Virus record (IMG/VR): IMGVR_UViG_3300025896_000023
Direction: 5' to 3' (one strand)
Source of the DNA: a virus
Taxonomy: Duplodnaviria > Heunggongvirae > Uroviricota > Caudoviricetes
DNA length: 64,000 nt
Positions 224 through 23,272 of this stretch are shown in pieces. Each line of letters starts with the position of its first letter. The stretch's first letter is position 1. A program made the position numbers and the translations under genes. Under the pieces are notes generated by a model that did not search any database, had not been told where the DNA came from, and saw only the letters and a program-made list of their open reading frames with translations.

Positions 224-964
224 ATGGCTAAAATATTTAAAGTCGGAGGTTGCATCAGAGATAAATTTCTTGGATTAGATTCTAAAGATATTGATTTTAC
301 CTTCGTATTAGAAGATACGAAAGGGTTTACTGTTGAAGATGGTTTTCAAATCATGACGAACTGGATGACAGACCAAGGGTTTGAAATATTCTTAAGTACT
401 CCAGATTGTTTTACAATTCGTGCCAAATTTCCAAAAGATCATCAGTTCGCTGGATTAGTTGCAGATTTTGTAATGGCAAGAAAAGAGGTTGGATATGTCG
501 AAGGAACCCGTAGGCCTATTTTGGAATTGGGTACTCTTGAAGATGATTTACTTCGTAGAGATTTTACTCTGAATGCATTAGCAGAAGATATTGATGGTAA
601 TCTTATTGATCTATTCGATGGAGTAGAGGACCTAAAGGTTGGAATATTGAGAACTCCAATGGATGCTAACATTACAATGATGGATGACCCATTACGTATC
701 TTAAGAGCCCTGAGATTTACTATCACTAAAGATTTTCAAATGCATGCTGATATTTGGGAAGCTATGAAACAACCAAGCATTCTTAAGAAGCTAGAGCAAA
801 CTGTAAGTCACGAAAGAATCAGAGAAGAACTACTTAAAATGTTTCAATTTAACACACCAAGAACATTTAGATTGTTAATGGATGTAGATGAAATTATCCC
901 TGGGTTCTTAGAATTGATTTTTAAAGATGGAATGTGGTTACAACCCACTACTAAAAAAATATAA
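224..964 (+). CDS. cca: CCA-adding tRNA nucleotidyltransferase, class II, minimal head-domain form
   Basis: N-terminal GGCIRDKFLGLDSKDIDF (GGxVRDxxLGxxxxDxD) and RRDFTLNAL (RRD motif) are seen in the sequence; 246 aa. Confidence 0.75.
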   Translation: MAKIFKVGGCIRDKFLGLDSKDIDFTFVLEDTKGFTVEDGFQIMTNWMTDQGFEIFLSTPDCFTIRAKFPKDHQFAGLVADFVMARKEVGYVEGTRRPILELGTLEDDLLRRDFTLNALAEDIDGNLIDLFDGVEDLKVGILRTPMDANITMMDDPLRILRALRFTITKDFQMHADIWEAMKQPSILKKLEQTVSHERIREELLKMFQFNTPRTFRLLMDVDEIIPGFLELIFKDGMWLQPTTKKI

Positions 965-966
965 TT

Positions 967-1212
967 ATGAAAAAGTTTTTAGAATTTATCTGTTGGGAAT
1001 TAGTAGTACCATTAGTATCAAATGTTTTTATGTTTCTCATGGGAATGGTTATGTTTGGATGGGCTCTTAGTTTTTTTGGATTAATGGTATTTTTTGTGCC
1101 AAGTCCAATATGGGTAAGATGGGTTGTAGGGATCTTTGATTCTTTCTGTGCAATCATGATAATCTATGGATGGATATATGATGCATGGAAAGGGGGTTAT
1201 AAACAAAATTAA
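967..1212 (+). CDS. small multi-pass membrane protein
   Basis: 81 aa, hydrophobic helices throughout; starts 3 nt after the upstream stop. Confidence 0.4.
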   Translation: MKKFLEFICWELVVPLVSNVFMFLMGMVMFGWALSFFGLMVFFVPSPIWVRWVVGIFDSFCAIMIIYGWIYDAWKGGYKQN

Positions 1213-1231
1213 TTTTTTAAATATAATATTT

Positions 1232-1525
1232 ATGAAACAGGTAGAAGATAAAGAAATTTTAATATGTGAATGTCATTCAACTGACCATCAACTTGTAATA
1301 TTATACGAGGAAGACACGTTAGAGGGAGGACATACATATCCAATGTGTTATTTCCATATACATCTAGCAAAGAAACCATTTTGGCAACGAGTTAAGTATG
1401 GACTAAAATATATCTTTGGATATCAATGTAATTATGGTGCGTTTGATGAGTTTATATTTAACCCAAAGGATGCTGATAAATTACAAGAGTTGGTAAACTA
1501 TTTAAAAAAGATTAAAAATGATTAG
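1232..1525 (+). CDS. hypothetical protein (His/Cys-containing)
   Basis: ORF in the chain of + genes; track start 1166 overlaps the previous gene, so the internal ATG at 1232 was chosen. Confidence 0.35.
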   Translation: MKQVEDKEILICECHSTDHQLVILYEEDTLEGGHTYPMCYFHIHLAKKPFWQRVKYGLKYIFGYQCNYGAFDEFIFNPKDADKLQELVNYLKKIKND

Positions 1526-1922
1526 AGTATATTTAGATGATGTAAGAACTCCGGTTGATAAAGATTGGACGGTAGTAAGAAACTACGAAGAATTTGTTGA
1601 TACAGTTACTTACATTGGACTTGAGAACATTGACTTAATCTCGTTAGACCATGATTTAGGAGATACTGCCATGGCCGAATGGCAACGAAATGTTTATCAT
1701 AACTACGAATTAAATTACGATAATATTCTAGAAAAGACTGGAATGGATTGTACTAAATGGTTAGTAGAACAATGGATGGATGGAAGTCCAGTAGTTGATG
1801 TTGTAATCCATTCTGCGAATGCAATTGGTAGCGCAAATATGATGGGTTATATTAATAACTATCGACATATTCATAGGTTACCTCAAAATTGTGTAAGAGT
1901 ACGCATAGAACATACTGTATAA
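1518..1922 (+). CDS. hypothetical protein
   Basis: 134 aa ORF; ATGA overlap with the upstream gene. Confidence 0.45.
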   Translation: MIRVYLDDVRTPVDKDWTVVRNYEEFVDTVTYIGLENIDLISLDHDLGDTAMAEWQRNVYHNYELNYDNILEKTGMDCTKWLVEQWMDGSPVVDVVIHSANAIGSANMMGYINNYRHIHRLPQNCVRVRIEHTV

Positions 1923-1932
1923 ATCTTATATT

Positions 1933-2328
1933 ATGAATAATAATTTGATGACAAGAGAAGAGATGGATGCTTTCTTAGAAAGTATTGGAGGCTTAAACAA
2001 TGGTTATTTTACTGACAGGCCACCTATTAAGAGTCGAGGTTTCTTTTCAGTTTCTGACGGTTGGTTAGGAATTATTAAGAGATTGATTGAAGATCTTATA
2101 GAACTTGGATGGAACAAAGAAATTTGTCAAGTCAAAGAAAAGTTCGGTGGCCTTAGATTTTATATCAATAGCGGAAGCGAAGAGATTTGGCAACGTATTA
2201 GATTAGCTGAAGATGCTTCGTATATTACGTGTGAAAAATGCGGTGAATTAGGTCAAATCAGAGGAAATGGCTGGATTTCAACATTATGCGATGAACATAG
2301 CGGAGGCAAGAAAATTCTAGAAATTTAA
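1933..2328 (+). CDS. hypothetical protein with C-terminal Cys/His cluster
   Basis: 131 aa; KEKFGGLRFY then CEKCGE...CDEH zinc-ribbon-like spacing. Confidence 0.45.
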   Translation: MNNNLMTREEMDAFLESIGGLNNGYFTDRPPIKSRGFFSVSDGWLGIIKRLIEDLIELGWNKEICQVKEKFGGLRFYINSGSEEIWQRIRLAEDASYITCEKCGELGQIRGNGWISTLCDEHSGGKKILEI

Positions 2329-2366
2329 GATAGTTTCGAATATATAATTCTAAAAGGAATTTTATT

Positions 2367-3152
2367 ATGAAAGCATCTTTATTAAATATTAAAACATCAC
2401 CATTAGATGAAAGGGACATTATTATAGAAACAATAATTAGTCCAAATCTACAAATACAATCTGACGTAGATTATAGAAAAGATATGCCAGAAGTATGGGA
2501 CCAAGGAGAAGATGGTCCCTGTTCTAGTTTTGCAGCTGCTGCAATTAAAGCATGGCAGGAGAAGATGAATTATGGACTAAATGAGGAACTTTCACAATAT
2601 TTTATATACAATATAAGACCCGATAAATCAATCAAGGGAATTAACCCAAGGATTACCATGCGACTACTACAATCATGGGGAATACCTCGCAAGAAAATTT
2701 ATAATAATAAACCAATATCTGACGTTAACAAATTATCTAAAGAAATATTAGATGATGCAAAAAATCATAGAATACTTGGGTATGCTGCAGTAAATACAAT
2801 AGACGGTTTAAAGGGTTCTTTAATTAAAAATGGTCCAGCATATATTGCAATGCCAGTTTATAATGAAAGCGATACATTTTGGAAAGGTGGCAAAGGAGAT
2901 AAAATGTTAGGTGGACATGCGTTAGTAGTGGTAGGTTATAATAAGATTGGATTTATTATAAGAAATTCATGGGGTTCTAATTGGAATGGAGATGGACACA
3001 CAATATATCCTTACACTGAGTTTGGAATGCACCTAGAAATTTGGACATCAATTGACGATACAACATCAACTCGGCAAGTTCCTTCAACTACACCGAAACC
3101 AGAAAGAAAGGGTATTGCAGGATTGTTTAAAAGGATATTTGGTAAAAATTAA
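2367..3152 (+). CDS. papain-like (C1 family) cysteine peptidase
   Basis: Cys motif CSSFAAAA, His motif GGHALVVVGY, and NSWGSNWNGDG (Asn-Ser-Trp) in canonical order. Confidence 0.6.
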   Translation: MKASLLNIKTSPLDERDIIIETIISPNLQIQSDVDYRKDMPEVWDQGEDGPCSSFAAAAIKAWQEKMNYGLNEELSQYFIYNIRPDKSIKGINPRITMRLLQSWGIPRKKIYNNKPISDVNKLSKEILDDAKNHRILGYAAVNTIDGLKGSLIKNGPAYIAMPVYNESDTFWKGGKGDKMLGGHALVVVGYNKIGFIIRNSWGSNWNGDGHTIYPYTEFGMHLEIWTSIDDTTSTRQVPSTTPKPERKGIAGLFKRIFGKN

Positions 3153-3230
3153 CAAAAAATTAACACTTATTTTTTTCAAGTATTAAATATTATAGTTATA
3201 TTTACATATCTAATTTAAACAAATAAAATC
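3145..3230 (+). promoter_or_regulatory. class-B upstream unit: AAAAATTAACAAAAAATTAACAC tandem half-sites plus variant promoter core TATAGTTATATTTACATATC
   Basis: Half-sites overlap the upstream stop codon. Confidence 0.4.
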
Positions 3231-4205
3231 ATGAAAAAATTATTATTATTATCTGCAATTATATTATTAATGTCATGTGATCCTGGAGAAATTCGAGTAG
3301 ATCCTAAACCTACTCCTACACCTCCGATTGCAATTGTACCTACACCTCCGTTTGCATCCGATGTTCCATTACCACCAGATCCTATAATCGATACGCCAGT
3401 TCCTACTATAAATCTTTCAAATTTACCAGAATGGACATTGATTCCAGACCAAAAATTTGAGAATGCATTAATTGCACAGGGAATTGACGATATTTCCGAT
3501 GGAAGGGTATTAACAAGTAAGATATCAACGTTGAAAGTATTAAAGGTTGAACACGCTGGAGTAACTAATACTACTGGTCTTGAGAATTTCTTAAGTTTAG
3601 AATTTCTTTCTCTATGGGATAATCCAATAACTTCAATAGATCTTACACATAATGTTCTATTACAAATATTAGGATTAAGCGAAACCTATTTGGAAACAGT
3701 AGATTTATCTAAAAATACAGAATTATATAGCGCAGAATTTCAAGGAAATAGTGATAAAAATGAAGATCCAAACTATCCATGGGGTAAAACTAGAGGATTT
3801 ACATCATTGGATTTTAGTCATAATCTTAAACTTCAAAGAATTTATGTAATGTGCAATAGATTAACATCGCTAAATGTTAGAATGTTACCTAAACTAACTG
3901 ATTTATGGATAGGATGTTCATACACAGGACGCACTGGAGGAAATTATATTAAAACAATAGATCTTACTGGTAATCCACGCCTTGGAACATTCATAGTGGC
4001 AGGAGGAACCTTTGAATATATTGATGCCAGAAACGCAAATAGCTCAGGTAATATAATGGTTAATGTTGTACTTAAAAATAATCCAGATCTAACAAAGGTT
4101 AGAGTTACAAATTTAGCGTTAATTAAATCTGTTAATGCAATGACTAGACCTGAAGGTCAAAGAGAACCATGGTATTTTGATGCACATACTATTTTATTTG
4201 AATAA
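3231..4205 (+). CDS. lipoprotein with leucine-rich-repeat-like region
   Basis: Signal peptide plus lipobox MKKLLLLSAIILLMSCD; repeated LxxLxLxxN segments; Pro-rich linker. Confidence 0.5.
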   Translation: MKKLLLLSAIILLMSCDPGEIRVDPKPTPTPPIAIVPTPPFASDVPLPPDPIIDTPVPTINLSNLPEWTLIPDQKFENALIAQGIDDISDGRVLTSKISTLKVLKVEHAGVTNTTGLENFLSLEFLSLWDNPITSIDLTHNVLLQILGLSETYLETVDLSKNTELYSAEFQGNSDKNEDPNYPWGKTRGFTSLDFSHNLKLQRIYVMCNRLTSLNVRMLPKLTDLWIGCSYTGRTGGNYIKTIDLTGNPRLGTFIVAGGTFEYIDARNANSSGNIMVNVVLKNNPDLTKVRVTNLALIKSVNAMTRPEGQREPWYFDAHTILFE

Positions 4206-4241
4206 ATAAAGATATATAATAAATAAATAAAGATTAATAAA

Positions 4242-4712
4242 ATGGGATTACCATATAGTGGCCAAATATCGATGGGAAATATAAATACTGAGCTCGGAAG
4301 AGCAAGTAATACTCCTAATACGCAATTGGCAGGTGGATTAACTCCGACAATATCTTCTCTATTTGGATTGGCAGATTCAACAATAAATAAAGTAGCTCCT
4401 CATCGTATTTCAGAATTTTATGGTTATTCAAGGGATTATATATCATTCAGTGGATTATATTCAATTGGATATAATGGAAGCGTCAGTGGAACTGTTACCG
4501 TATCCGGGGGTCCACATAATTTTTCAGCAGGCGCAACTCAATTTGGAGGAGGAACAACGACTGCGAATATCGTAGTAAACGGTATAGCTAGAAGTCGTAC
4601 TCAAGCTGGAAATGGAACATCATATTCAACAACCTTTCAATTAGGAGAAGGAGTATATTCATATTCATTAAGTGTATCTTTGACCGGTAGTGGTAGTGGT
4701 TTTATAAATTAA
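4242..4712 (+). CDS. Gly/Ser/Thr-rich protein, paralog 1 of a tandem pair
   Basis: Shares YSGxISxGxINTE, EFYGY, SxYSIGYNGSxSGTVT and YxYSLSVS blocks with 4797..5237. Confidence 0.5.
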   Translation: MGLPYSGQISMGNINTELGRASNTPNTQLAGGLTPTISSLFGLADSTINKVAPHRISEFYGYSRDYISFSGLYSIGYNGSVSGTVTVSGGPHNFSAGATQFGGGTTTANIVVNGIARSRTQAGNGTSYSTTFQLGEGVYSYSLSVSLTGSGSGFIN

Positions 4713-4796
4713 AATATTTCTTAAAAATATAATATATCTATTAATATGAATGATATGTTAGACTAAATTAGATATATAAAAAAAAATAATAATAAT

Positions 4797-5237
4797 ATGA
4801 GTTTAGTATATAGCGGGGCAATTTCTTTAGGACAAATTAATACAGAAATGGGAGGACCTGGAACTAATAAAAGTTTAACTTCTAATTCGGTCAATGCAGG
4901 AAAGGCGCCAGACCATGGCATCCGAGAATTTTATGGTTATACACGAAAATACGTATCCTTTAGTTCATTATATTCTATAGGATATAACGGTAGCGCAAGT
5001 GGAACTGTTACAATAACGGGAGCAGCTAATTTTTCAGCAGCAGCACTAAAAACAAATACAGGTGGTATAAATGTTTCAATAACTGTTGGAGGAATTACCA
5101 GAACTGCATCGAGGTCTACTGCAGGAACTACATTTTCTACTACATTTCAACGAGGAACGGGTACATACGCATATTCGTTGAGTGTAAGTTCATTAGTCGG
5201 CTCTGGCTCTGGATACATAGACGTTGTAATGGTTTAA
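4797..5237 (+). CDS. Gly/Ser/Thr-rich protein, paralog 2 of a tandem pair
   Basis: Clear paralog of 4242..4712. Confidence 0.5.
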   Translation: MSLVYSGAISLGQINTEMGGPGTNKSLTSNSVNAGKAPDHGIREFYGYTRKYVSFSSLYSIGYNGSASGTVTITGAANFSAAALKTNTGGINVSITVGGITRTASRSTAGTTFSTTFQRGTGTYAYSLSVSSLVGSGSGYIDVVMV

Positions 5238-5274
5238 TTTTAAAATATTTTATTAATTCTAAAAAATTCATTAA

Positions 5275-6234
5275 ATGAATATTAAAGGAATTCATGTGTT
5301 TAAGGGAGTAAGTGAAAAATCTTACTCCGAACACATCTTATTGATTCAAACACTTTCTGCCCTAGAGTGGAAGAAAAATGGACCAATACATTTATATACT
5401 ACAGAAAAGGATTTAATCTTTTTCAAAAAAATGGGCATGGATGTTTTATATGATAATATAAATACTGATGTTCTTGAAGAGCCAGACGATATATATTGGC
5501 CACACTTCGGTGCTGCTACTAAAATGAAGGTTCTTAATTCCATTCAAGAATTTCCAGTTGCATTTATAGATAATGATTTAATTTATAAGGATAAATTAGA
5601 TGAGTCTATTTTAAATTATGATATAACCTATTTGCATGATGAAGGCAGATTTTGGAGAAATTATCCAGATGTGTCTTTATTGGGTAAAAGAAAGGATTAT
5701 CAATTTCCAAATATTCCGGAACTTAATACATGTAATCCCATTAATGTTGGATTCTTTATTATAAATAATAAAGAACTTAAAGAAAGATATTGCAAACTAG
5801 CATTAGATTTCATGACTAAAAATAATAGTTTATCTGCTCCTGTTAAATGGGCAAATCCTGACCTAAGAAAGTTTTGGAAACCATTATTTGCAGAACAACG
5901 ATTATTATCTGCAGTCGTCGATAATGGAGGATTTACAAGAAACCAATTATTTCCATATACATATTATGGAGATACTTGTAATTGGACGCATATTAAAGAA
6001 AATGTTAGAATTACCAGCGATAATTTATATAAAAAGGAAAAGTTTACATGGTTTCATTTATGGGGAGAAAAGGTGGCATACAAAAAGCCAGCATTTAAAC
6101 CTCTTAAAGTTATAATGTTTTATCAATTATTGAATGAATTATTTAATAGAAAAGACCAAAGAATCACACAAATTGCATGGAATATTTTGGATTGGTTAAA
6201 GAAATCAAATTCATCTAATGAATATAATATATGA
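5275..6234 (+). CDS. DXD-motif protein, paralog family member A (putative nucleotide-sugar glycosyltransferase-like)
   Basis: N-terminus IHVFKG...LSALEWKKNGPIHLYT...DVLYDNINTD aligns with 7818..8789; DXD-like VAFIDNDLIY. Confidence 0.4.
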   Translation: MNIKGIHVFKGVSEKSYSEHILLIQTLSALEWKKNGPIHLYTTEKDLIFFKKMGMDVLYDNINTDVLEEPDDIYWPHFGAATKMKVLNSIQEFPVAFIDNDLIYKDKLDESILNYDITYLHDEGRFWRNYPDVSLLGKRKDYQFPNIPELNTCNPINVGFFIINNKELKERYCKLALDFMTKNNSLSAPVKWANPDLRKFWKPLFAEQRLLSAVVDNGGFTRNQLFPYTYYGDTCNWTHIKENVRITSDNLYKKEKFTWFHLWGEKVAYKKPAFKPLKVIMFYQLLNELFNRKDQRITQIAWNILDWLKKSNSSNEYNI

Positions 6235-7821: not shown

Positions 7822-8789
7822 AAGCAATACATGTAAATTGGACTGCACCTTTTTTTAATAAAGAAAGACTAAGAGGACATGGATTTTCTATAACTAAAGA
7901 TTTAAATTCAATAGAGTATAGTATTCCCGACTATCAAATATTATATACAATTCTATCAATACTTAGATGGAAATTACATAATGGACCTATAAAATTATAC
8001 ACAGATTCAATAGGTTTAAATTATTATAAAACAATCGGAATAGATGCATTATACGATGATATCAATACTGAGTTTCTAGATAATTTAACGGGAGTCGATG
8101 CAGCGTATTACTGGACTTCTGGCAAAATACAAGCACTTCGAAACGAAAATGAACCATTTGTGTTTTTAGATCAGGATTTTATAGTTAGAGGAACCATACC
8201 AGAATCCTTTTATTATGGAGATATTGGAATTGGACACTGGGAAATTCCAAGAGGTAATTATTATTTTACTAAAAAACAGTGGGAGTCTGAAATTAAACAT
8301 GTTTCATTTCCTATAAATTATAATTGTAATGCATATTCACCTAATACATCTTTTGTTTATTTTGGATCTAATTCTGCCATTGATGAATACGTAAACGCAC
8401 ATAAAGAATTAATAAACTCCGGAGATAATGAAGTACCTGAGTGGTTTTGGTTAGCAACTGACCAAGGTATTTTAGGACATATTATTAGGGAACATGAATA
8501 TCACACAAATACATTAACAAATAGAATATTTTTAGCAGATAGCGATTATGCTAAAGTAGAAGATAGAAAGTTTGGATATTCTGAACAATGGTACTATCCA
8601 ACTGAATTTGATTCTAGTAAAAATGAATTAGAATGGGAACACGTTTGGTTAGCCAAGGTGGTATATGCGTCAAATCCTTTATTATTATCGAATGACTGCA
8701 CACGATTTTATGAAGAGATAAAAAACGTTTTTCCAGAATATTCTTATATTTTAAAAGAAACAAGATTAAAACAATATGAAAATAGTTAG
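7818..8789 (+). CDS. DXD-motif protein, paralog family member C
   Basis: IHVNWTAP...LRWKLHNGPIKLYT...DALYDDINTE; DXD-like FVFLDQDFIV. Confidence 0.4.
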   Translation: MKAIHVNWTAPFFNKERLRGHGFSITKDLNSIEYSIPDYQILYTILSILRWKLHNGPIKLYTDSIGLNYYKTIGIDALYDDINTEFLDNLTGVDAAYYWTSGKIQALRNENEPFVFLDQDFIVRGTIPESFYYGDIGIGHWEIPRGNYYFTKKQWESEIKHVSFPINYNCNAYSPNTSFVYFGSNSAIDEYVNAHKELINSGDNEVPEWFWLATDQGILGHIIREHEYHTNTLTNRIFLADSDYAKVEDRKFGYSEQWYYPTEFDSSKNELEWEHVWLAKVVYASNPLLLSNDCTRFYEEIKNVFPEYSYILKETRLKQYENS

Positions 8790-10279: not shown

Positions 10280-10839
10280 TGGAAAATATAGGATATGATA
10301 TTTTCGTTTTTAGAAAAAGTATTCCTTTTCAAACAATAGAATTATGTAATACTATTAGAAATGAATCCAACTCTGATGGAAGAATCGATGCTAACGATAT
10401 TTTAATGGAAAGCTTTAATAGTTTTATTAAAGAATTATATAATGATGTGATTCTAGATTATTTAAAAATATATGATGTAGAGAACGGAATAGGTTATAAC
10501 TCAAGTATTGATACCGTTAATGAAATTAAGGAGTATGTTAGTCCATTATGGCGAGAAGTATTTTTATTAAAATATTCTGAAACATATCCCATCTCTTATG
10601 AAAAAAACGTGCATTGGGATTTTTCTATGTTTACTATTGTCGGATGTTTAAACGATGAATTTGAAGGAGGTGAACTTGAATTTCCTAGGCAAGAAATAAG
10701 TGTTTTATTAAAAAAAGGAGATATTGTGATTTTTCCAGGAGGGTTAACCCATCCGCATTTTGTGAATAAAGTTACCAAGGGAGAGAGATATGTTATCGTT
10801 GGTCAAACCCTATATCCTGGCTTAAATAAAATAAAATAA
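10279..10839 (+). CDS. 2OG-Fe(II) oxygenase (prolyl-4-hydroxylase-like)
   Basis: VHWD (HxD) ... GGELEFP ... GDIVIFPGGLTHPHFVNKVTKGERYVI (distal His, Arg). Confidence 0.55.
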   Translation: MENIGYDIFVFRKSIPFQTIELCNTIRNESNSDGRIDANDILMESFNSFIKELYNDVILDYLKIYDVENGIGYNSSIDTVNEIKEYVSPLWREVFLLKYSETYPISYEKNVHWDFSMFTIVGCLNDEFEGGELEFPRQEISVLLKKGDIVIFPGGLTHPHFVNKVTKGERYVIVGQTLYPGLNKIK

Positions 10840-15861: not shown

Positions 15862-15865
15862 AAAT

Positions 15866-16494: not shown

Positions 16495-16497
16495 ATT

Positions 16498-16914: not shown

Positions 16915-16916
16915 TT

Positions 16917-17282
16917 ATGGAATCAATATTAGATAAAAAGATAGATTTTAAGGATGCGATTGATTCAATTAAAAGAGTACTTGGAATCTTATTTCCATGG
17001 GTTAGTCTTTTTAAAAGTATTAAAAATGAAACGTTTTATTCAAACACATTATATGATATTAAACAGGGGCATCCTGTTATAATTAGATCTGAAAAGATAA
17101 TGTCTCAATATGAAAAAATGTATGGCAGAATAGATTCGCAATTCGCATTAGATACTGTTAAGATGGGAATTAAGCGTGAAATCTGTGATGAAATCATGAG
17201 AAGTGATTTATTTGAATGGCAAATCGAAGGTACTACAATGGGAACCAAAGTTGCTGCAAGAATAATTATTAATAAGTTTTAA
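16917..17282 (+). CDS. hypothetical protein
   Basis: 121 aa ORF. Confidence 0.4.
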   Translation: MESILDKKIDFKDAIDSIKRVLGILFPWVSLFKSIKNETFYSNTLYDIKQGHPVIIRSEKIMSQYEKMYGRIDSQFALDTVKMGIKREICDEIMRSDLFEWQIEGTTMGTKVAARIIINKF

Positions 17283-17316
17283 AAATAAGTATTAAAACAT
17301 TTTTTATATCGAAACT

Positions 17317-17354
17317 TTTAGTTATATTTACATATAAATTAAAACAAACATACA
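17317..17354 (+). promoter_or_regulatory. promoter-like module copy (variant TATATTTACATATAAATTAAAACAAACA)
   Basis: Upstream of Prs-like gene. Confidence 0.45.
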
Positions 17355-18233
17355 ATGATAATATTAGATTTAGTTAACCCGGAAAAATCGCAAATCAAGT
17401 ACAAAATTAGTCAATTCCCAGATGGTCAACAAACAGTAGACCTTACAGAATGGAATGACTTATTGAGATATACTGATGCTGTAAAAATTAGCTCACGTTT
17501 AAATAGTTTTAAAGATTTAGAATTAATTATTTGTGCAACCACTGCGATCAGAAATATTAAACCTACCAGAGAAATTATCCTTTACGTTCCTTATTTTGTA
17601 GGTGCTCGTTCAGATCGCAAATTTAGCGAAGGTGGAGTTAATTATCTAAAACAGGTAATTTGTCCAATTATTAATTCTTTAAATTTTATAACTGTAATTA
17701 CGTTAGATCCACACTCTGATGTATTGGAAGCATGCTTGAATAACTATGAAAAATTAGATAATCACATACTAGCAAAATATGCACTTTCAAATATAGATAA
17801 TAAAAAAGATGCTCAAGAAAGAATTTGTTTAGTAAGCCCAGATGCTGGAGCATATAAGAAAATCTTTGATGTTGCTAAAAAGTTTGGAATTCAAAATGTT
17901 GTTACTGCAAATAAAGTAAGAGACATGAAAACTGGTAATATTCTTAAGACCGAGGTTCCAAACCTACCAGGAATTGTTGGAGATGATTTACAATATGTAA
18001 TCATCGATGATATTTGCGATGGTGGTAGAACATTTAATGAACTAGCAAAGGCAATTAGAGAACAACGAAGTGATGCAAAGATCTATTTAGTAGTAACCCA
18101 TGGTATCTTTAGCGCTGGATTTAAAGAATTATCACAATACTTCGAAGGAATTTATACAACAAATAGTTATCGAGAAGTTGCAGATAATGAATATGAAGAA
18201 AAAACAAACACAATAGTATTTAAAGTAATATAA
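17355..18233 (+). CDS. ribose-phosphate pyrophosphokinase (Prs) family protein; candidate ADP-ribose pyrophosphokinase
   Basis: PRPP-binding loop VIIDDICDGGRT; SPDAGAYKKIFDVAKKFG; length 292 aa; directly downstream of a promoter module. Confidence 0.6.
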   Translation: MIILDLVNPEKSQIKYKISQFPDGQQTVDLTEWNDLLRYTDAVKISSRLNSFKDLELIICATTAIRNIKPTREIILYVPYFVGARSDRKFSEGGVNYLKQVICPIINSLNFITVITLDPHSDVLEACLNNYEKLDNHILAKYALSNIDNKKDAQERICLVSPDAGAYKKIFDVAKKFGIQNVVTANKVRDMKTGNILKTEVPNLPGIVGDDLQYVIIDDICDGGRTFNELAKAIREQRSDAKIYLVVTHGIFSAGFKELSQYFEGIYTTNSYREVADNEYEEKTNTIVFKVI

Positions 18234-18445
18234 TGTATACTATAGATTCATTAACAACATTAGGATATGTTATAGAAATTAGTTTGGATAGAACAAGTAC
18301 TCCTAAATTCGCGTTTGACATATGGAAATATGAACACTTTGGAAATTATGAACTAATTAAAGTCAGAGAATGGTATTTATACCGAACATGGCAAGAAGCA
18401 TTTGAAGCAGCAGTAGAAGAATTAAAACACTTAAATTTAATATAA
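18233..18445 (+). CDS. hypothetical protein
   Basis: 70 aa; ATGT overlap with Prs-like gene. Confidence 0.35.
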   Translation: MYTIDSLTTLGYVIEISLDRTSTPKFAFDIWKYEHFGNYELIKVREWYLYRTWQEAFEAAVEELKHLNLI

Positions 18446-18556
18446 AAATGAATAAAGAAATTAAAACAGAAACAACGGACCAATTAGTATTAGTTCATGA
18501 TGTAATTTTAGGCTCAAGATATGAGTTGCAATCGGTTGAAGTAGAGGCAGATCTAG

Positions 18557-19078
18557 GTGCTCCAGATGAAACTATTGATGAGCAATAGAGAATATCGAAT
18601 GTATGGCTTGGTACCTTATAACTTAAGCCCAATCCAACAAGGTATCCAATTTGGACATGCTGTGGTAGAATATGGAATTGAATTTATTGAAAACCAAGAA
18701 TACCAAGAATGGGCTAGAAGAGATAAAACTTTTATTATTCTAAACGGCGGTACTACTAATTCAAATACAATGAGATTAGGAACTCTTAACCAACATTATC
18801 ATGAATTAAATGACAATGGTATTAAAATTGGAGAATTTCATGAGCCAGATTTAGGAGATCAATTAACTGCAGTAGTTTTTATAGTTGATGATCGAGTATT
18901 TGACAAGGTAAATTGGCCAGACTTAGTTCCATTACAATTCAATAATGGATTTATGAATCCAGAAGACCTAGATGAGTACCGAAAAAATGAATTCGACGAA
19001 TGGAAGAAACAATTTGGAGATGATGCAGAGCAAATCGTATTCCTAAGATATTTTTTAAAAAACTTTAGATTAGCATAA
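18557..19078 (+). CDS. hypothetical protein, weak resemblance to PTH2-type peptidyl-tRNA hydrolase
   Basis: QQGIQFGHAVVEYG roughly matches the PTH2 AAQCxHA box; true start may be an internal Met. Confidence 0.3.
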   Translation: MLQMKLLMSNREYRMYGLVPYNLSPIQQGIQFGHAVVEYGIEFIENQEYQEWARRDKTFIILNGGTTNSNTMRLGTLNQHYHELNDNGIKIGEFHEPDLGDQLTAVVFIVDDRVFDKVNWPDLVPLQFNNGFMNPEDLDEYRKNEFDEWKKQFGDDAEQIVFLRYFLKNFRLA

Positions 19079-19079
19079 G

Positions 19080-19595
19080 ATGTATCAAGAAATAGAAGGT
19101 GATTTAATTGCTATGGCAAAACAAGGTAAGTTTGATGTAATTACACATGGTTGTAATTGTTTGTCAAATATGGGAGCAGGAATAGCACCTCAAATGGCAA
19201 AAGCATTTGGAGTTGATAAATTTGAAATGGAAACTTGGGGTGCAACAATCGAAAAACTAGGATGTATTGATTGGCAAACAGTAGTTCTTGGAGAAAATAC
19301 AATTTGGTCTTTAGAAGATTATAAGAACAATCGAGATGAACCAGAATTAGTAGTTGTGAATTCATATACACAATATAGATATGGTAAGAATCATAAAGAT
19401 GGAGTTGCTAAACCTATTGACTACGAAGCACTTACATTATGCATGCGTAAAATCAATAATAAATTTAATGGTAAACATATTGGACTTCCAAAGATTGGCG
19501 CCGGTTTGGCAGGTGGAGATTGGAATAGAATCAAACGTATTATTCAAACAGAATTAAAAGACATGAAAGTGTCAGTAATAATTTATAAACCATAG
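19080..19595 (+). CDS. Macro domain protein (ADP-ribose binding/hydrolysing)
   Basis: DVITHGCNCLSNMGAGIA matches the macro-domain nucleotide-binding loop. Confidence 0.6.
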   Translation: MYQEIEGDLIAMAKQGKFDVITHGCNCLSNMGAGIAPQMAKAFGVDKFEMETWGATIEKLGCIDWQTVVLGENTIWSLEDYKNNRDEPELVVVNSYTQYRYGKNHKDGVAKPIDYEALTLCMRKINNKFNGKHIGLPKIGAGLAGGDWNRIKRIIQTELKDMKVSVIIYKP

Positions 19596-19598
19596 AAA

Positions 19599-20084
19599 AT
19601 GAAAGTAACAGATAAACATGTATTTTTCTGGAATGGAATTTACTCACAATGGCATAAAGCACCAATGACAATTGACAAGATTGAATATAATTCTTGTGAA
19701 CAATACATGATGCATCAAAAGGCATTATTATTTGGAGATGAAGATATTGCAGAGCAAATTATGCAAGAAACGAATCCAAGAGAACAAAAGAAATTTGGCA
19801 GAATGATTAGAAACTTTGATAAAACTATTTGGGATAAAAATTGTTTGGCAATTGTTTATGAAGGAAACTTGGCAAAATTCAGACAAAATGCTGGATTAAG
19901 AGAAGAAATGTTAAATACTGGCGATCGTATCTTTGTAGAGGCTTCTCCATTAGATAATATTTGGGGTATTGGACTTGATGAAAATGCCGAAGGAATTGAT
20001 GATCCATCATATTGGTTAGGTTTAAATCTTTTAGGACAAGCATTAACTCTTGTAAAAAATCAAATTAAATCTGAAATAAGATGA
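19599..20084 (+). CDS. NADAR (YbiA-like) domain protein
   Basis: FFWNGIYSQWH...CEQYMMHQKALLFGD...NIWGIGLD signature. Confidence 0.65.
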   Translation: MKVTDKHVFFWNGIYSQWHKAPMTIDKIEYNSCEQYMMHQKALLFGDEDIAEQIMQETNPREQKKFGRMIRNFDKTIWDKNCLAIVYEGNLAKFRQNAGLREEMLNTGDRIFVEASPLDNIWGIGLDENAEGIDDPSYWLGLNLLGQALTLVKNQIKSEIR

Positions 20085-20365
20085 GACAATCAGGTAAAAC
20101 TACAAGATTAGTGGATGCTGCAGTTCAATATTTATTTGAACACGGATCTATTAGAATCTTAACAAACTCTGAAGTATTTGATAGAAATTCACTGAGAGGT
20201 TATAGACCAGAACAAGTCGATATGCTTTTAAAATTTATCGATCCAGATACTAGGCCAGATAATAGAGCACAACAGTATTTTATTGAAGCATTAGATAGAA
20301 GACTTGCAACCGAACATGGAGGAAGCACTGAAAGAATTAGTGCAACAGAATTTAAAGTAATTTAA
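20081..20365 (+). CDS. hypothetical protein
   Basis: 94 aa; 4-nt overlap. Confidence 0.4.
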   Translation: MRQSGKTTRLVDAAVQYLFEHGSIRILTNSEVFDRNSLRGYRPEQVDMLLKFIDPDTRPDNRAQQYFIEALDRRLATEHGGSTERISATEFKVI

Positions 20366-20517
20366 TATGAAAAGATTAGTAGAATTATTAGCACCATCGT
20401 ATTTAGGATTTGCTCTAGCCGCATTTGCGCATATCACATGGTATCAATGGGAATTTTATGCAATTATAGTTCCATTTTATATTTTAGTAAAAATAACGGA
20501 TTTTAATAAAGACGAAG

Positions 20518-21096
20518 ATGAGTAGAACAGAATTTCACACAGGAAAATTATATCCAGTCAAAATTGAAAATAGTCTGGAAGAAACTTGCAGAAGTATTGC
20601 AAAACGACATGATGTTGAACTAAGTGAAGATTGGCAAGAAGACTTTAGGGATGCTTTTGATGAGTATGCTACTAAGATAATAAGCCAACCCGAGGAGTAT
20701 TTTATTCATGGAGAAAATCTTTATAGAGTTATTGACCATATCGAATCAGACGATGATGAGTCCTTTATGAAACTTAGGCATAATGGAGATGGTAGTATTT
20801 CCTTTATTGGTCAATTCTATAATGGAGGTACATGTTTTTCCGAAATTTTAGAAGAATCATTAAATGATTTAAAACCAAGTTATCAAGTTCAGATTAAAGA
20901 AGCAGTTGACCATATTGTTGAAGTCCATGGAGTTGAACAACCTTTTACAATTCCAGGCGCTGGTAAATTAATCAAGGAATATATGAGCCTTGAAAAGGCT
21001 ATTGAATTATTTGAAGGTGCCAAGAATGAAGCTGCCGGAAATGCATTTAGATCTTCAGCGTATGAGGCAACACTAGAAACAATCTTAAAAGTATGA
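20518..21096 (+). CDS. hypothetical protein
   Basis: 192 aa acidic protein. Confidence 0.4.
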   Translation: MSRTEFHTGKLYPVKIENSLEETCRSIAKRHDVELSEDWQEDFRDAFDEYATKIISQPEEYFIHGENLYRVIDHIESDDDESFMKLRHNGDGSISFIGQFYNGGTCFSEILEESLNDLKPSYQVQIKEAVDHIVEVHGVEQPFTIPGAGKLIKEYMSLEKAIELFEGAKNEAAGNAFRSSAYEATLETILKV

Positions 21097-21274
21097 ACAA
21101 ATATAGAGTAGAATGTAGAATAGGTTCAAGCTGTACGATTAGAACAATTGAATGCAGAGAAATGACAATTAATGAAGGTTCATATTGTTTTTGGACCGGA
21201 GAATATGGAAAGACTAATAAATTAGTTTATGCATTTCCAATAATGAATTCCATAGTAGAAGGTATTCATGAAGA

Positions 21275-21356
21275 AAATTAACATAAAATTAACACTCGGG
21301 ATTTTCTAGTCTCGAGTTTTTTGTTTATATTTACATTATAATTAAAACAATAACAA
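21275..21356 (+). promoter_or_regulatory. class-B unit: AAAATTAACATAAAATTAACAC, terminator hairpin, TTTTTTGTTTATATTTACATTATAATTAAAACAA
   Basis: Upstream of Fpg/Nei-like gene. Confidence 0.45.
21295..21322 (+). terminator. rho-independent terminator
   Basis: CTCGGGA-TTTTCTAGT-CTCGAG then TTTTTTG. Confidence 0.5.
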
Positions 21357-22148
21357 ATGCCAGAATTAGCAGAACTTAGATTAACTTCAGAATATATTAA
21401 AACCGTTTCAAATGGTAGAGAATTTACACGAATAGAAAAAAGTCAAGCACATAAGGGTATTGAATTTTCAGCCCCATATCCTACATTTAAAATCAGTGCA
21501 AAAAGTAAAGGTAAGGAAATTGTTATGTATCTTTATCCGAATGAAGCAACACCAGTATATACTCCAATTCGAATGACAATGGGAATGTCAGGACATTTTC
21601 AACTCACCGAAACTGGTAAAGAAGCAAAGCATGCACATCTTAAATTTTATAGTACAGATGGTTATACATTGAGTTTTGTAGATGTAAGAAGATTTGGTAA
21701 ATGGAAATTAGGAGAAGAATGGTCAAGCAATAGAGGACCAGATCCAACTTTAGAATTTCAAAACTTTGTTAGAAATGTTAAAGAAAATTTACATAAAAAA
21801 GATTTTGACAAACCTATTTGCGAGGTCTTAATGAATCAAAAATATTTCAATGGTATTGGTAATTATTTACGTGCCGAGATATTATATAGAGTAGATGTAA
21901 ATCCATTTATCAGTGCAAGAGAAGCCTTACAAGGTAATCCAGAAATATATCAACTATGTAAATGGGCACCAATGCAGGCCTATAAATTAGGAGGTGGCCA
22001 ATTAAAGGATTGGGAAAATCCATTTGGTAAAGAATCTGAGATGAAATCATGGTCGGAATTTATGAGATGCTATAACAATCCAAAAATGAATAAAGTAGTA
22101 GATACAAATAAAAGAACCTTTTGGTTCGATCCTAAATGGAACAAATAA
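21357..22148 (+). CDS. Fpg/Nei-family DNA glycosylase/AP lyase, apparently zincless
   Basis: N-terminal MPELAELRL (Pro2-Glu3); H2TH-like FNGIGNYLRAEILYRVDVNPF; no CxxC...CxxC at the C-terminus. Confidence 0.55.
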   Translation: MPELAELRLTSEYIKTVSNGREFTRIEKSQAHKGIEFSAPYPTFKISAKSKGKEIVMYLYPNEATPVYTPIRMTMGMSGHFQLTETGKEAKHAHLKFYSTDGYTLSFVDVRRFGKWKLGEEWSSNRGPDPTLEFQNFVRNVKENLHKKDFDKPICEVLMNQKYFNGIGNYLRAEILYRVDVNPFISAREALQGNPEIYQLCKWAPMQAYKLGGGQLKDWENPFGKESEMKSWSEFMRCYNNPKMNKVVDTNKRTFWFDPKWNK

Positions 22149-22158
22149 CTTTTAAATT

Positions 22159-22407
22159 ATGACAGATTTACAAAAATGGGAAGCAGTTAATCAATGCGAA
22201 ACTGCAAAAGAATTAGAAACCCTAATTCTAGAGAATTTTTCAGATGGTGAAGGAAAGATCCAAGGTCGATCTAGAAAGTTCGATACCGTTGAAATGCTAG
22301 TTGGTTTAACAATGTTTATGAAGAATCAAATGCACCCTAATATTCTTACTAGAGAGTTTGGTATTCGTCAACAGGCAATTTATTTGAAATCTGTTGAAAC
22401 AAATTAA
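22159..22407 (+). CDS. hypothetical protein
   Basis: 82 aa. Confidence 0.35.
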   Translation: MTDLQKWEAVNQCETAKELETLILENFSDGEGKIQGRSRKFDTVEMLVGLTMFMKNQMHPNILTREFGIRQQAIYLKSVETN

Positions 22408-22471
22408 GTAATACTTATATAATAACCATAACCAGCATCCAACTAACGAAGGTTGCACAATACCATATATT

Positions 22472-23272
22472 ATGAAAAACGATGCATTAGGCGATCGCAT
22501 GAAAGAGTTCTACGAAGATAGAACCAGAATCAAACTTCCAAGAAGAACTTACACAATTATTCGAATTGATGGTAAGGCATTCCACACTTACACTAAAGGA
22601 TTAACAAGACCATTTGATGAGGGTCTAATTGAAGACATGAATGCAACTACTGCATATTTATGTAAAAACATCCAAGGCGCTAAATTCGGTTATGTGCAAT
22701 CAGATGAGATTAGTTTAGTCTTAACAGACTTTGATGACTTAGGAACTCATGCTTGGTTCGACAACAACTTACAGAAAATGGTAAGTGTTGCTGCTTCTAT
22801 GGCAACTGCAGAATTCAATAAACTTAGGTTAATGCGATTCATGAAAGATAGCATGATCTTTTTAGAACCTGAAGATATTGGAAAATTCAAAATGGCTGAG
22901 TTCGACGCTAGAGCATTTCAAATTCCATTTATCGATGAGGTAGAAAACTATTTTATTTGGAGACAACAGGATGCTGTAAGAAATTCAATCTCTTCAGTTG
23001 CACAAAGTCTTTATAGTACTACAGAATTACATGGTAAAAAAACAAGTGATATGCAAGAATTGATCTTCCAGAAGGGAATTAACTGGAATGATTATGATTT
23101 TCGTTTGAAACGAGGCGCAATAATCGGAAAGGTAGAAGTTGTAACTACAACTAGCGATGTTAATTACACGAGAAATAAATGGCAAGTTATTGAAACTCCA
23201 ACATTTACTCAAGATAGATTTTTTATTAAAGGATTACTAAACACTAAAAAGAAAGAAAATGAATTGGTTTAA
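22472..23272 (+). CDS. Thg1-like 3'-5' nucleotidyltransferase (tRNA-His guanylyltransferase family)
   Basis: DRMKEFYED...LPRRTYTIIRIDGKAFHTYTKGLTRPFDEGL...YVQSDEISLVL matches Thg1 catalytic core blocks. Confidence 0.65.
   Translation: MKNDALGDRMKEFYEDRTRIKLPRRTYTIIRIDGKAFHTYTKGLTRPFDEGLIEDMNATTAYLCKNIQGAKFGYVQSDEISLVLTDFDDLGTHAWFDNNLQKMVSVAASMATAEFNKLRLMRFMKDSMIFLEPEDIGKFKMAEFDARAFQIPFIDEVENYFIWRQQDAVRNSISSVAQSLYSTTELHGKKTSDMQELIFQKGINWNDYDFRLKRGAIIGKVEVVTTTSDVNYTRNKWQVIETPTFTQDRFFIKGLLNTKKKENELV

Follow-up and report, generated by a model that had tools for sequence, protein, structure and literature searches.

The 64,000-nucleotide stretch of DNA analysed here (the window) derives from an uncultured large aquatic phage that carries at least 25 tRNA genes, a short CCA-adding-type enzyme and a Thg1-like protein (TLP). 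A search of GenBank phages with the window returned no nucleotide-level match. Both protein-coding genes lie exactly where the initial annotation had placed them, 21.5 kb apart and separated by many unrelated genes, and the tRNA genes of the window form a single cluster of five at 37684-39271 (ARAGORN, Rfam). The features considered are:

224..964, + strand: short class II tRNA nucleotidyltransferase (CCA-adding-type), head and neck only, 246 aa, ATG start (Pfam, PHROGs, structure, homologue lengths)
22472..23272, + strand: bacterial-type TLP, predicted templated 3'-5' RNA polymerase, 266 aa, ATG start (Pfam, PHROGs, alignment to Bacillus thuringiensis TLP, BtTLP)
37535..37679, + strand: tRNA-mimic RNA (sequence, comparison of loci L147 and L148, family statistics)
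37684..37757, + strand: tRNA-Ala(UGC), no encoded CCA (A73 then CTA) (ARAGORN, Rfam, sequence)
38378..38458, + strand: tRNA-Leu(UAA), G1:U72, no encoded CCA (ARAGORN, Rfam, sequence)
38466..38552, + strand: tRNA-Ser(UGA), CC encoded, A76 not (ARAGORN, Rfam, sequence)
38686..38757, + strand: tRNA-Arg(CCG), no encoded CCA (ARAGORN, Rfam, sequence)
39199..39271, + strand: tRNA-Asp(GUC), no encoded CCA (ARAGORN, Rfam, sequence)

Phage tRNA genes and a tRNA-mimic RNA

Two tRNA clusters had been claimed for this DNA. The window itself holds only the cluster of five, but a second array of 20 genes does exist just upstream on L007, a sequence from the same genome (0 mismatches over 1745 nt); downstream of this array, after 2.4 kb, comes the CCA-like gene. 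An encoded CCA is absent from 24 of the 25 phage tRNA genes, the sole exception being a tRNA-Met (L007 6282-6358), and CCA addition is therefore needed; C74 is encoded in 24 of the 25. Inspection of the acceptor stems of the phage tRNAs revealed no mismatches that call for 5' editing.

Among them is an atypical tRNA-His(GUG) that has C73 and an encoded G-1, lacks an encoded CCA, and has an aberrant elbow in which the D and T loops are non-canonical. ARAGORN missed this gene, whereas Rfam gives it 34.9 bits (gathering score 29), and it is 97% conserved in the relative L076. Its predicted fold is a cloverleaf in which G-1 and C73 are paired, and C73 with G-1 is a geometry that TLPs accept in their substrates. 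Since the genome itself encodes G-1, this tRNA-His does not strictly depend on the TLP. Most tRNA-His genes of related phages encode G-1 as well. Three tRNA-His genes of other phage loci have T at -1 together with C73, and there G-1 addition would be required. Features such as C73, an aberrant elbow and a missing CCA have been reported to influence cleavage-site selection by RNase P at -1.

The "orphan acceptor/T-arm modules" of the initial annotation correspond to the tRNA-mimic RNA at 37535-37679, a concrete candidate for the unusual tRNA-like transcripts whose maturation by the enzymes had been suggested there. In this RNA a closing helix (AGGTTC/GAACCT) and the invariant CUUACAGCAA are followed by a V hairpin, a T arm, an acceptor-like stem of 7 bp with a 17-nt loop as its cap, and a D arm; L148 differs by compensatory changes, and the RNA is conserved in L147. 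Such tRNA mimics, noticed in passing, form a widespread phage family that is apparently undescribed and may be a more novel item than the enzyme pair. The mimic resembles YrlA and Dictyostelium Class I RNA only weakly, and its assignment as a YrlA/Y RNA was rejected (Rfam RF02553, 14.6 bits against a gathering score of 69); none of the window ORFs tested encodes a Ro60/TROVE protein. In Mycobacterium smegmatis, YrlA, with its 7-bp stem, is cleaved by RNase P and receives CCA (PMC4201824), and the phage mimic is a possible extra substrate for the same two steps.

The short CCA-type enzyme and the Thg1-like protein

The 246-aa protein contains the PolyA_pol head (PF01743, E 3.3e-17, 63.5 bits against a cut-off of 23) and PolyA_pol_RNAbd (PF12627, E 1.3e-5, 25.3 bits against 22) domains, and matches full length a 245-position tRNA nucleotidyltransferase profile (phrog_24229, E 6e-60). 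The Pol-beta-type class II head with motif A (G8 G9 R12 D13 and the metal-binding carboxylates D22 D24) is present, as are motifs B (R111 R112 D113), D (D154 D155 P L R158) and, in the neck, E (R198-E202/K205), all of them invariant in 29 homologues. The first position of motif D is changed conservatively from E to D, and the templating D155 and R158 are retained. The initial annotation had described a short cca-like ORF with class II motifs and no long body or tail, and the alignments bear this out: the protein covers only the N-terminal ~225 residues (~14-240) of solved class II enzymes, all of at least 390 aa. An AF2 model (pLDDT 89) matches these enzymes in Foldseek with E values down to 9e-16 and TM scores of ~0.7 when normalised to the query and 0.36-0.49 when normalised to the target. 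Both alignment and Foldseek reveal that the chain ends after the neck, so that the domains responsible for binding the tRNA acceptor/T-arm minihelix, body and tail, are absent. All of the best 120 homologues are 243-257 aa long, and the short CCA-type enzyme is a conserved full-length family rather than a fragment.

NCBIfam equivalog models score the protein at 47-99 bits against cut-offs of 290-1440, and the CCA and PcnB models give similar partial scores, all far under their cut-offs. To our knowledge, CCA-, CC-, A-adding and poly(A) activities of class II enzymes cannot be told apart by sequence alone. In every solved class II enzyme the tRNA is held by the body and tail; since this protein has neither, and no conserved partner gene turned up in its neighbourhood, tRNA binding and full CCA specificity are putative. 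CCA-like proteins are encoded in 434 of 50,697 GenBank phage records (tblastn), with annotated relatives in Cellulophaga, Microbacterium, Arthrobacter and Synechococcus phages; identity of GenBank phage proteins to either window enzyme is at most 50%. The head-and-neck-only family is very large, length-conserved and viral, and would test the minimum class II enzyme for ordered CCA synthesis; we found no biochemical study of this form in the literature.

Thg1/TLP catalytic blocks had been reported in the ORF at 22472..23272, and a profile search, which could have put the protein outside the Thg1 family, places it inside (PF04446, E 1.3e-29, 103 bits against a cut-off of 29.2). The protein also matches full length a tRNA-His guanylyltransferase profile (phrog_4717, E 4.9e-86), and its best solved relative is BtTLP (4KGK, E 6e-60, ~50% identity over residues 4-254). 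The Thg1 catalytic palm domain is present, and its three metal-binding carboxylates, D33 (in IRIDGKAF) and D78 and E79 (in QSDEIS), coincide in the alignment with the catalytic residues of 4KGK, 3WBZ and 5XOX, all solved Thg1/TLP structures. The C-terminal Thg1 domain (PF14413) scores 19 bits against a cut-off of 26.3, and the BtTLP alignment extends to residue 254 of 266. In eukaryotic Thg1, the HINNLYN motif reads the His anticodon. The phage protein lacks this motif, having AVRNSIS (ASKNSIS in BtTLP) where Candida albicans Thg1 has CHINNLYN, and was rejected as a eukaryote-type Thg1, the type that adds G-1 without a template; its matches to eukaryotic Thg1 reach E values of 1e-12 to 1e-5, compared with 6e-60 for BtTLP.

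BtTLP adds G-1 opposite C73 with a kcat/KM of ~5500 M-1s-1 and is still more efficient at repairing 5'-truncated tRNAs (PMC3061083), and by homology the phage TLP is predicted to perform templated 3'-5' addition to 5'-truncated tRNA or tRNA-His(C73). Thg1-like proteins had fairly been called uncommon in phages: TLPs occur in 164 of the 50,697 GenBank phage records (tblastn) and are annotated in Bacillus, Xanthomonas, Aeromonas, Caulobacter, Lak and other large phages. Their neighbourhoods contain NAD-salvage and ADP-ribose genes, with NAMPT in 17, PRPP-synthetase-like genes in 13 and Macro-like genes in 10 of 59 TLP loci. Phages in which a TLP occurs together with a defined set of tRNAs are tractable systems in which to study the physiological substrate of bacterial-type TLPs.

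A scan of ~50 window ORFs for RNA-repair genes (PHROGs, Pfam) yielded no RNA ligase (Rnl1, Rnl2 or RtcB) and no end-healing kinase/phosphatase; the nearest finds were metallophosphoesterases of a generic kind and one ATP-dependent DNA ligase. A ligase/kinase-phosphatase RNA-repair system of the T4 or jumbo-phage type was thus rejected, since the required ligase and kinase were not found among these ORFs.

Possible roles of the two enzymes during infection

Of 80 related IMG/VR loci, 14 have a TLP gene in the 10 kb to either side of the CCA-like gene, at distances of 1-9 kb, in both orders and down to ~50% protein identity. TLP contigs of at least 100 kb number 29, and at least 7 of these also appear among the CCA-like matches listed; genome size and tRNA number confound such co-occurrence. 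In 58 of 81 related loci, the 10 kb around the CCA-like gene on each side are free of tRNA genes. The two genes need not occur together, because 46 Bacillus phage records contain a TLP, yet Bacillus does not figure among the leading genera for the CCA-like protein.

We consider it most likely, at a probability of roughly 0.6, that the phage tRNA set is serviced by both the CCA-type enzyme and the TLP during infection. By homology to class II enzymes, the CCA-type enzyme would finish the 3' ends of phage tRNA transcripts, almost all of which lack an encoded CCA, and would put back lost terminal nucleotides. The TLP would activate the tRNA 5' phosphate with ATP or GTP, fill in missing 5' nucleotides with the 3' strand of the acceptor stem as template, and supply G-1 opposite C73 of the phage tRNA-His when RNase P or decay leaves it missing. 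The CCA-less tRNAs, the adjacent array, the phage's own tRNA-His(C73) and the recurrent gene proximity support a link of both enzymes to tRNA ends. Repair of both tRNA ends had been suggested in the initial annotation; the tRNA-end link is backed by this context. The idea is not new (PMC7824862). The 21.5-kb gap, the encoded G-1, the lack of mismatches for 5' editing, the tRNA-poor related loci, the non-obligatory pairing and the absent body and tail all count against upkeep of the phage's tRNAs by both enzymes.

The initial annotation had also cast the pair as acting against host nucleases, such that restoring acceptor ends clipped by immune or toxin nucleases would keep translation running. 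Counter-defence repair of this kind is plausible but, in our view, doubtful here. It was proposed earlier for jumbo phages (PMC7824862), the NAMPT, PRPP-synthetase-like and Macro-like genes near TLPs are typical of counter-defence islands, and attackers of the 3' acceptor end do exist. Cas12a3 removes the CCA tail and often the discriminator too, and its authors call viral means of resistance unknown (PMC12851939); HEPN-MNT clips CCA tails, and retron Eco2 nicks 6-7 nt upstream of CCA (PMC12916289). However, neither discriminator loss by Cas12a3 nor the in-stem cut of Eco2 would be restorable by a CCA-adding enzyme, and the papers on all three nucleases describe no tRNA 5'-end truncation (PMC12851939, PMC12916289). 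Because known defence nucleases clip the 3' side only, they leave no identified damage for the TLP to repair. We know of no defence system that truncates tRNA 5' ends. With no RNA ligase, polynucleotide kinase or RtcB among the ~50 window ORFs tested, a 21.5-kb gap, G-1 encoded and acceptor stems free of mismatches, the claim is unsupported for this pair. It is unlikely, too, that the TLP is a dedicated G-1 enzyme for the phage tRNA-His and the CCA-like enzyme functionally unrelated to it, both being typical cargo of large tRNA-rich phages. The C73, aberrant elbow and missing CCA of the phage tRNA-His, the efficiency with which BtTLP adds G-1 opposite C73 and the three tRNA-His genes elsewhere that would need G-1 are consistent with such a specialist; G-1 is encoded in this tRNA-His and most of its relatives, however, BtTLP-type enzymes favour 5'-truncated tRNAs of any identity, and the phage TLP lacks HINNLYN. 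Bacillus phages with a TLP and no evident CCA-like gene would suit unrelated cargo, whereas the 1-9 kb spacing in several divergent lineages argues for some functional link.

We regard it as very unlikely that the 246-aa protein is not a true CCA-adder and instead performs A-adding, CC-adding or poly(A)-type tailing, or acts mainly on non-tRNA substrates such as the tRNA-mimic RNAs. Pointing that way are class II activities that sequence does not separate, the similar CCA and PcnB scores, the missing body and tail, a nearby mimic with a capped 7-bp acceptor stem, the CCA received by M. smegmatis YrlA, and the encoded C74, with which reduced activity might suffice. Against this, the catalytic and nucleotide-templating motifs A, B, D (D155/R158) and E are all invariant in the family, the nearest solved relatives are CCA-adding enzymes, and the CCA-addition demand of 24 tRNAs is evident. 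A wider proposal, distinctly unlikely as it stands, is that the 244-246-aa proteins are natural minimal CCA-adders without body or tail that would form, with the TLP, an acceptor-end maintenance module against tail-directed immunity (Cas12a3, HEPN-MNT) and/or would mature tRNA-mimic RNAs, with RNase P opening the capped stem before CCA is added. Now that immune nucleases directed at tRNA tails have been discovered, CCA-adding enzymes of viruses are obvious candidates for a means of resistance. Servicing of the phage's own tRNA set by both enzymes is the reading that we prefer.

Comparison with known systems

The 246-aa protein has the head/neck fold and motifs A, B, D and E in common with class II CCA-/A-adding enzymes such as those of B. 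stearothermophilus (1MIV), T. maritima (3H37), A. aeolicus (1VFG) and A. thaliana (9KMA), but has no body or tail, and its motif D reads DDPLR, not EDxxR. BtTLP (PDB 4KGK/4KGM; PMC3061083, PMC3701042) shares with the phage TLP the catalytic carboxylates and the TLP-type sequence that replaces HINNLYN. Unlike BtTLP, the phage protein is phage-encoded, has ~20 extra residues including an insert at ~120-135, and is accompanied by a tRNA-His(C73) encoded in the same genome. YrlA-type bacterial and phage Y RNAs (Chen et al., 2014; PMC4201824) have the same order of V, T arm, capped acceptor-like stem and D arm as the phage mimic, and in both the two ends of the RNA pair at the position of the anticodon stem, whereas the closing module of the mimic has a different invariant motif, CUUACAGCAA.

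The closest precedent for the enzyme pair is the jumbo-phage RNA-repair sets (Iyer, Anantharaman, Krishnan, Burroughs and Aravind, 2021; PMC7824862), for which restoration of tRNA 3' (CCA) and 5' (Thg1) ends by these two families, in the same roles, is already published. Since both gene families and the idea of tRNA-end maintenance are known for large phages, the pair described here is a well-supported yet ordinary case. What is new is its context, namely the tRNA gene set, the CCA-less 3' ends, the location of the array, the phage's own tRNA-His with C73 and the gene proximity, which make it a clear, well-contextualised example, of modest value, backing the published prediction that large phages maintain both tRNA ends. 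The published sets accompany RNA ligases, kinases and phosphoesterases, whereas no ligase or kinase of this kind was found among the ~50 window ORFs tested; here, the role that the evidence favours first is to mature the CCA-less tRNAs of the phage itself.

The short CCA-type enzyme and the Thg1-like protein

Both open reading frames that the initial annotation assigned to tRNA end maintenance are present exactly as it described them:

224..964 (+), 246 aa, short class II CCA-type enzyme (CCA-like protein)
22472..23272 (+), 266 aa, Thg1-like protein (TLP)

The profile searches it had called for were positive in both cases. The CCA-like protein contains a poly(A) polymerase/CCA-adding head domain (PF01743, E = 3.3e-17) followed by the neighbouring Pfam neck domain (PF12627, E = 1.3e-5), and is matched over its full length by phrog_24229, a 245-position 'tRNA nucleotidyltransferase' profile (E = 6e-60). 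Its NCBIfam equivalog scores do not exceed 99 bits and fall short of every cut-off (290 or more), which a protein of half the usual length would be expected to do. Solved class II CCA-adding, A-adding and poly(A) enzymes, all of at least 390 aa, align to it only through their N-terminal ~225 residues. An AlphaFold2 model built with 29 homologues is confident (mean pLDDT 89, pTM 0.81), and a Foldseek search of the PDB retrieved class II enzymes with E-values down to 9e-16 and TM-scores of ~0.7 on the query but only 0.36-0.49 on the targets. The protein therefore consists of head and neck, and lacks the long body and tail, as had been proposed from its size.

This short form is not a truncated pseudogene or fragment, because homologue lengths are uniform and the PHROG profile is equally short: of 5,975 homologues at E <= 1e-10 (5.8 billion proteins searched), the best 120 are 78-100% identical and all 243-257 aa long, and are encoded on contigs reaching 477 kb in JGI, ENA and Tara metagenomes. 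Invariant positions in the alignment comprise motif A (G8, G9, R12, D13, D22, D24), motif B (R111, R112, D113), motif D (D154, D155, P, L, R158) and motif E. A split gene or an adjacent partner supplying the body and tail finds no support, as the downstream ORFs are small (the first encodes 81 aa and is hydrophobic-looking by eye). In divergent loci the CCA-like gene has no conserved neighbour, and hence nothing points to a dedicated tRNA-binding partner. Relatives occur in 434 GenBank phage records; Cellulophaga, Microbacterium, Arthrobacter and Synechococcus phages have the short form at full length, under the annotation tRNA nucleotidyltransferase. CCA-adding enzymes are already known from huge and jumbo phages (PMC7162821; PMC7824862); our literature search found no characterisation of the short form.

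The TLP is recognised by the Thg1 profile (PF04446, E = 1.3e-29) and, over its full length, by phrog_4717, 'tRNA-His guanylyltransferase' (E = 4.9e-86). By far its closest solved relative is the Bacillus thuringiensis Thg1-like protein BtTLP (4KGK; E = 6e-60, ~50% identity across residues 4-254), whereas eukaryotic Thg1 enzymes reach only E = 1e-12 to 1e-5. The metal-binding carboxylates are present (D33 in IRIDGKAF, D78-E79 in QSDEIS). In eukaryotic Thg1, the HINNLYN motif is implicated in reading the His anticodon; where those enzymes have CHINNLYN the phage protein has AVRNSIS, resembling ASKNSIS of BtTLP. This substitution, together with the best match to BtTLP, indicates that the ORF encodes a bacterial-type TLP as opposed to a canonical tRNA-His guanylyltransferase. 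Addition of G-1 by BtTLP is efficient only if G-1 pairs with C73 (kcat/KM ~5500 M-1 s-1, versus ~108 for A73), and the enzyme prefers to rebuild 5'-truncated tRNAs of any identity, its physiological substrates being described as still unknown (PMC3061083).

Megablast of the TLP region against GenBank phages gave no match. TLP relatives are found in 164 of 50,697 GenBank phage records, including Bacillus, Prevotella Lak, Caulobacter, Mycobacterium and Erwinia/Serratia/Yersinia jumbo phages, which makes it fair to describe Thg1-like proteins as uncommon in phages. Calling them unrecognised would be unjustified, as most are annotated as tRNA-His guanylyltransferase.

Proximity of the two genes and their surroundings

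In the window the two genes lie on the same strand, 21.5 kb apart, with many unrelated genes between them. Among 80 listed IMG/VR loci with CCA-like relatives (49-92% identical), 14 carry a TLP within the 10-kb flanks, 1-9 kb from the CCA-like gene and on either side of it, the most divergent lineages included. Additionally, at least 7 of 29 TLP contigs of at least 100 kb are also among the listed CCA-like matches. In GenBank, ~1.4 records with both genes would be expected by chance (164 x 434 / 50,697). Genus counts in the TLP and CCA-like lists (Prevotella Lak 15 and 15, Caulobacter 13 and 13) suggest that real co-occurrence is far above this figure, with the caveat that both genes are commoner in large genomes rich in tRNA genes. 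Nor is the pairing obligatory, because TLP occurs in 46 Bacillus phage records and Bacillus is outside the ten commonest genera for the CCA-like protein.

The TLP sits within an NAD/ADP-ribose cluster, which we take to resemble published phage NAD+ reconstitution and counter-defence gene sets:

17355..18233, PRPP-synthetase-like protein
19080..19595, Macro-like protein
19599..20084, NADAR
24123..25688, NAMPT-family phosphoribosyltransferase
25965..26441, nucleoside deoxyribosyltransferase-like protein

Across 59 listed loci, the TLP neighbourhood includes NAMPT in 17, a PRPP-synthetase-like protein in 13 and a Macro-like protein in 10. Directly upstream of the TLP, at 21357..22148, is an Fpg/Nei-family DNA glycosylase (N-terminal MPELAEL; precomputed Pfam domains Fapy_DNA_glyco, H2TH and Neil1-DNA_bind), a neighbour found beside the TLP in none of the 59 listed loci. 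Elsewhere, a thymidylate synthase homologue (58967..60163) has 398 aa and a match spanning a 335-position profile, which implies an insertion of ~90 aa, and an M42-family glutamyl aminopeptidase (41713..42798) seems unusual as a phage gene.

The phage tRNA set: probable upkeep and possible counter-defence

A metagenome contig of the same genome, L007, encodes an identical CCA-like protein, overlaps the window over 1,745 nt without a mismatch and extends 9.8 kb upstream. This upstream stretch holds 19 tRNA genes detected by ARAGORN and one more detected by Rfam (34.9 bits, gathering score 29), which with five in the window gives at least 25 tRNA genes for 19 amino acids, Lys not being detected. 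The large tRNA array is followed, 2.4 kb further downstream, by the start of the CCA-like gene.

L007 2462-7622 and window 37684-39271, the 25 tRNA genes whose 3' flanks were read
L007 7445-7516, ~2.3 kb upstream of window position 1, tRNA-His(GUG), found by Rfam only and missed by ARAGORN
L076 (locus of a related phage that also has a TLP) ~8001-8072, tRNA-His relative, 97% conserved

CCA is encoded by the tRNA-Met gene alone (...ACCA) and is absent from the other 24 of 25. All phage tRNAs but one therefore need CCA completion, an obvious job for the CCA-type enzyme. C74 is encoded in 24 of the 25 genes, usually in the 3' context N73-C-A-A; the genome as a whole appears AT-rich.

The phage tRNA-His is atypical. 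It has the anticodon loop CUGUGAA, C73 and a G encoded at -1, together with a mismatched U6:U67 pair, a D loop that lacks GG and the T loop GGCAGUA. The minimum-free-energy structure predicted for it is a cloverleaf in which G-1 pairs with C73, at an energy no better than that of shuffled sequences (z = -1.0). Most tRNA-His genes of the other fetched phage loci also have G at -1 and C73, and three that lack G-1 (L178, L245 and L259) have T at -1 with C73, so that G-1 would need to be added post-transcriptionally. Reading by hand, we also saw mismatches at acceptor positions 5-6 in tRNA-His of L076 and of two further related loci, L117 and L128.

In amoebal mitochondria, TLPs repair tRNAs once mismatched 5' nucleotides have been removed. 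No such editing pathway is indicated here, since the top three acceptor pairs are Watson-Crick or G:U in all ARAGORN tRNAs but one, a dubious tRNA-Gly(ACC) without Rfam support.

Upkeep of the phage's own tRNAs by both enzymes is the best-supported reading. CCA would be completed or re-added on about two dozen CCA-less phage tRNAs by the short class II enzyme. The TLP would copy the 3' strand to fill in missing 5' nucleotides, among them G-1 opposite C73 of the atypical tRNA-His. The enzymatic activities and in vivo substrates are those that homology predicts. What the genomes directly display is that the tRNAs require CCA completion, that tRNA-His has this geometry and that the two genes are often close together, and the reading suggested in the initial annotation is partly supported. 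The ~50 window ORFs scanned (PHROGs or Pfam) include no RNA ligase, polynucleotide kinase or RtcB.

As an extension of upkeep, counter-defence repair of tRNA ends is plausible. Some immune systems are now known to cut tRNAs on the 3' side of the acceptor end: HEPN-MNT is described as a clipper of CCA tails, and the nick made by retron Eco2 falls 6-7 nt upstream of CCA (PMC12916289). Loss of CCA could be undone by a viral CCA-adding enzyme, whereas loss of the discriminator or a nick within the stem would be beyond its repair. The literature on tRNA-attacking defence systems covered here does not describe any that shortens tRNAs at the 5' end, nor do we know of one, which leaves the TLP without a recognised lesion to mend.

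A family of tRNA-mimic RNAs

A structured RNA in the window has relatives in two related phage loci:

window 37535-37679 (+), tRNA-mimic RNA
L147 12369-12513 (-), relative
L148 331-476 (-), relative

The window element is a real structured RNA. From 5' to 3' it comprises a closing helix (AGGTTC/GAACCT), the invariant CUUACAGCAA, a V hairpin, a T arm, a 7-bp acceptor-like stem under a 17-nt loop cap, a D arm and a 5-bp stem (ACAGA/TCTGT) that takes the place of the tRNA anticodon stem. Across the family, the closing helix of the two ends is variable (6-7 bp) and the 3' end is usually ...UG. Both halves are perfectly kept in L147, where linker and flanks have diverged, and L148 has compensatory changes in each helix. 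The pattern CTTACAGCAA-N25-50-GGTTCRANTCC occurs in at least 120 viral stretches in IMG/VR, often several times per contig, and motif copies are present in the GenBank record of Serratia phage BF; 41 distinct full elements were gathered (window, L147, L148 and 38 others). Covariation is strong across 110 non-identical instances: 72 have a perfect 6-bp closing helix (19-28 in controls), and T-stem pairing reaches 93% at the three pairs that the pattern leaves free, against 44% with partners shuffled. In 43 of the 110, the T arm is followed by a perfect capped 7-bp hairpin (0-13 at control positions).

No element reached an Rfam gathering score. The nearest families are Dictyostelium Class I RNA (22-24 bits versus 41.5), which shares the closing stem and CCUUACAGCAA, and YrlA tRNA mimics, which have the same module order and score 14.6 bits on the window element against a gathering score of 69. 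A full-text literature search for the motif returned nothing relevant. The family is widespread in phages and apparently not in Rfam.

Two other readings of 37535-37679 were rejected, a YrlA-like tRNA mimic being preferred. As a permuted tRNA, the halves rejoined in silico fold as cloverleaves with no defined anticodon; a two-piece tmRNA is contradicted by the missing G3:U70 and by the lack of space for a tag reading frame, and the Rfam permuted-tmRNA model gives only 12-16 bits (gathering score 47). The V-arm sequence GTCGAAAG resembles the YrlA motif GNCGAAN0-1G. Because this match is not kept in relatives, which have GCCGCAAG, GTCGCAAG or no V arm, we treat the arm as a GNRA-type hairpin and the likeness as coincidence.

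M. smegmatis YrlA, whose stem has 7 bp, is an RNase P substrate and receives CCA in vivo (PMC4201824), which lends some substance to the speculation that the two enzymes may also mature tRNA-like transcripts. N-C-A-A follows the acceptor-like 3' strand of the mimic as it does the phage tRNAs, which suggests a 3'-processing signal common to both.

Several smaller elements accompany the family:

window 37765-37840 (+), short sibling
L268 (Serratia phage BF, NC_041917.1) 8510-8570 and 10752-10812, short siblings
L148 ~255-325 (-), short sibling
window 37843-37871, orphaned duplicate of a tRNA-Leu 5' piece
window 37941..38375, HNH homing-endonuclease gene (phrog_10822, E = 1.5e-32)
window 38378-38458, complete tRNA-Leu(UAA), beside the HNH gene

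The short siblings (~55-75 nt) have no tRNA-like body, and consist of a closing stem and a C(U/A)UACAGCAA-like motif. In Serratia phage BF the two copies are followed after 6 nt by tRNA-Ile and tRNA-Gln, in the window the short copy is followed after ~15 nt by the tRNA-Leu remnant, and the long element itself stops a few nt short of tRNA-Ala; the short siblings are possibly a structured tRNA leader. Another Serratia phage BF copy lies inside a 125-nt feature annotated 'tRNA-Pseudo' (L268 905-1029). This cultured jumbo phage, which also encodes a TLP, has an unannotated YrlA-like match between gp467 and gp466 (L268 9569-9661; RF02553, E = 3.6e-6, with 40.3 bits where the gathering score is 69). 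The orphan piece at 37843-37871 is not a functional module and is explained as a remnant of the HNH insertion: at the homologous site L147 has an intact tRNA-Leu and no HNH gene, and the window has the remnant followed by the HNH gene and the complete tRNA-Leu.

The tRNA-mimic family is a side observation that merits a separate look. The enzyme pair is itself of modest interest, and adds a further example to a known class, because the whole idea of maintaining both tRNA ends was put forward earlier for jumbo phages (Iyer et al., 2021; PMC7824862).
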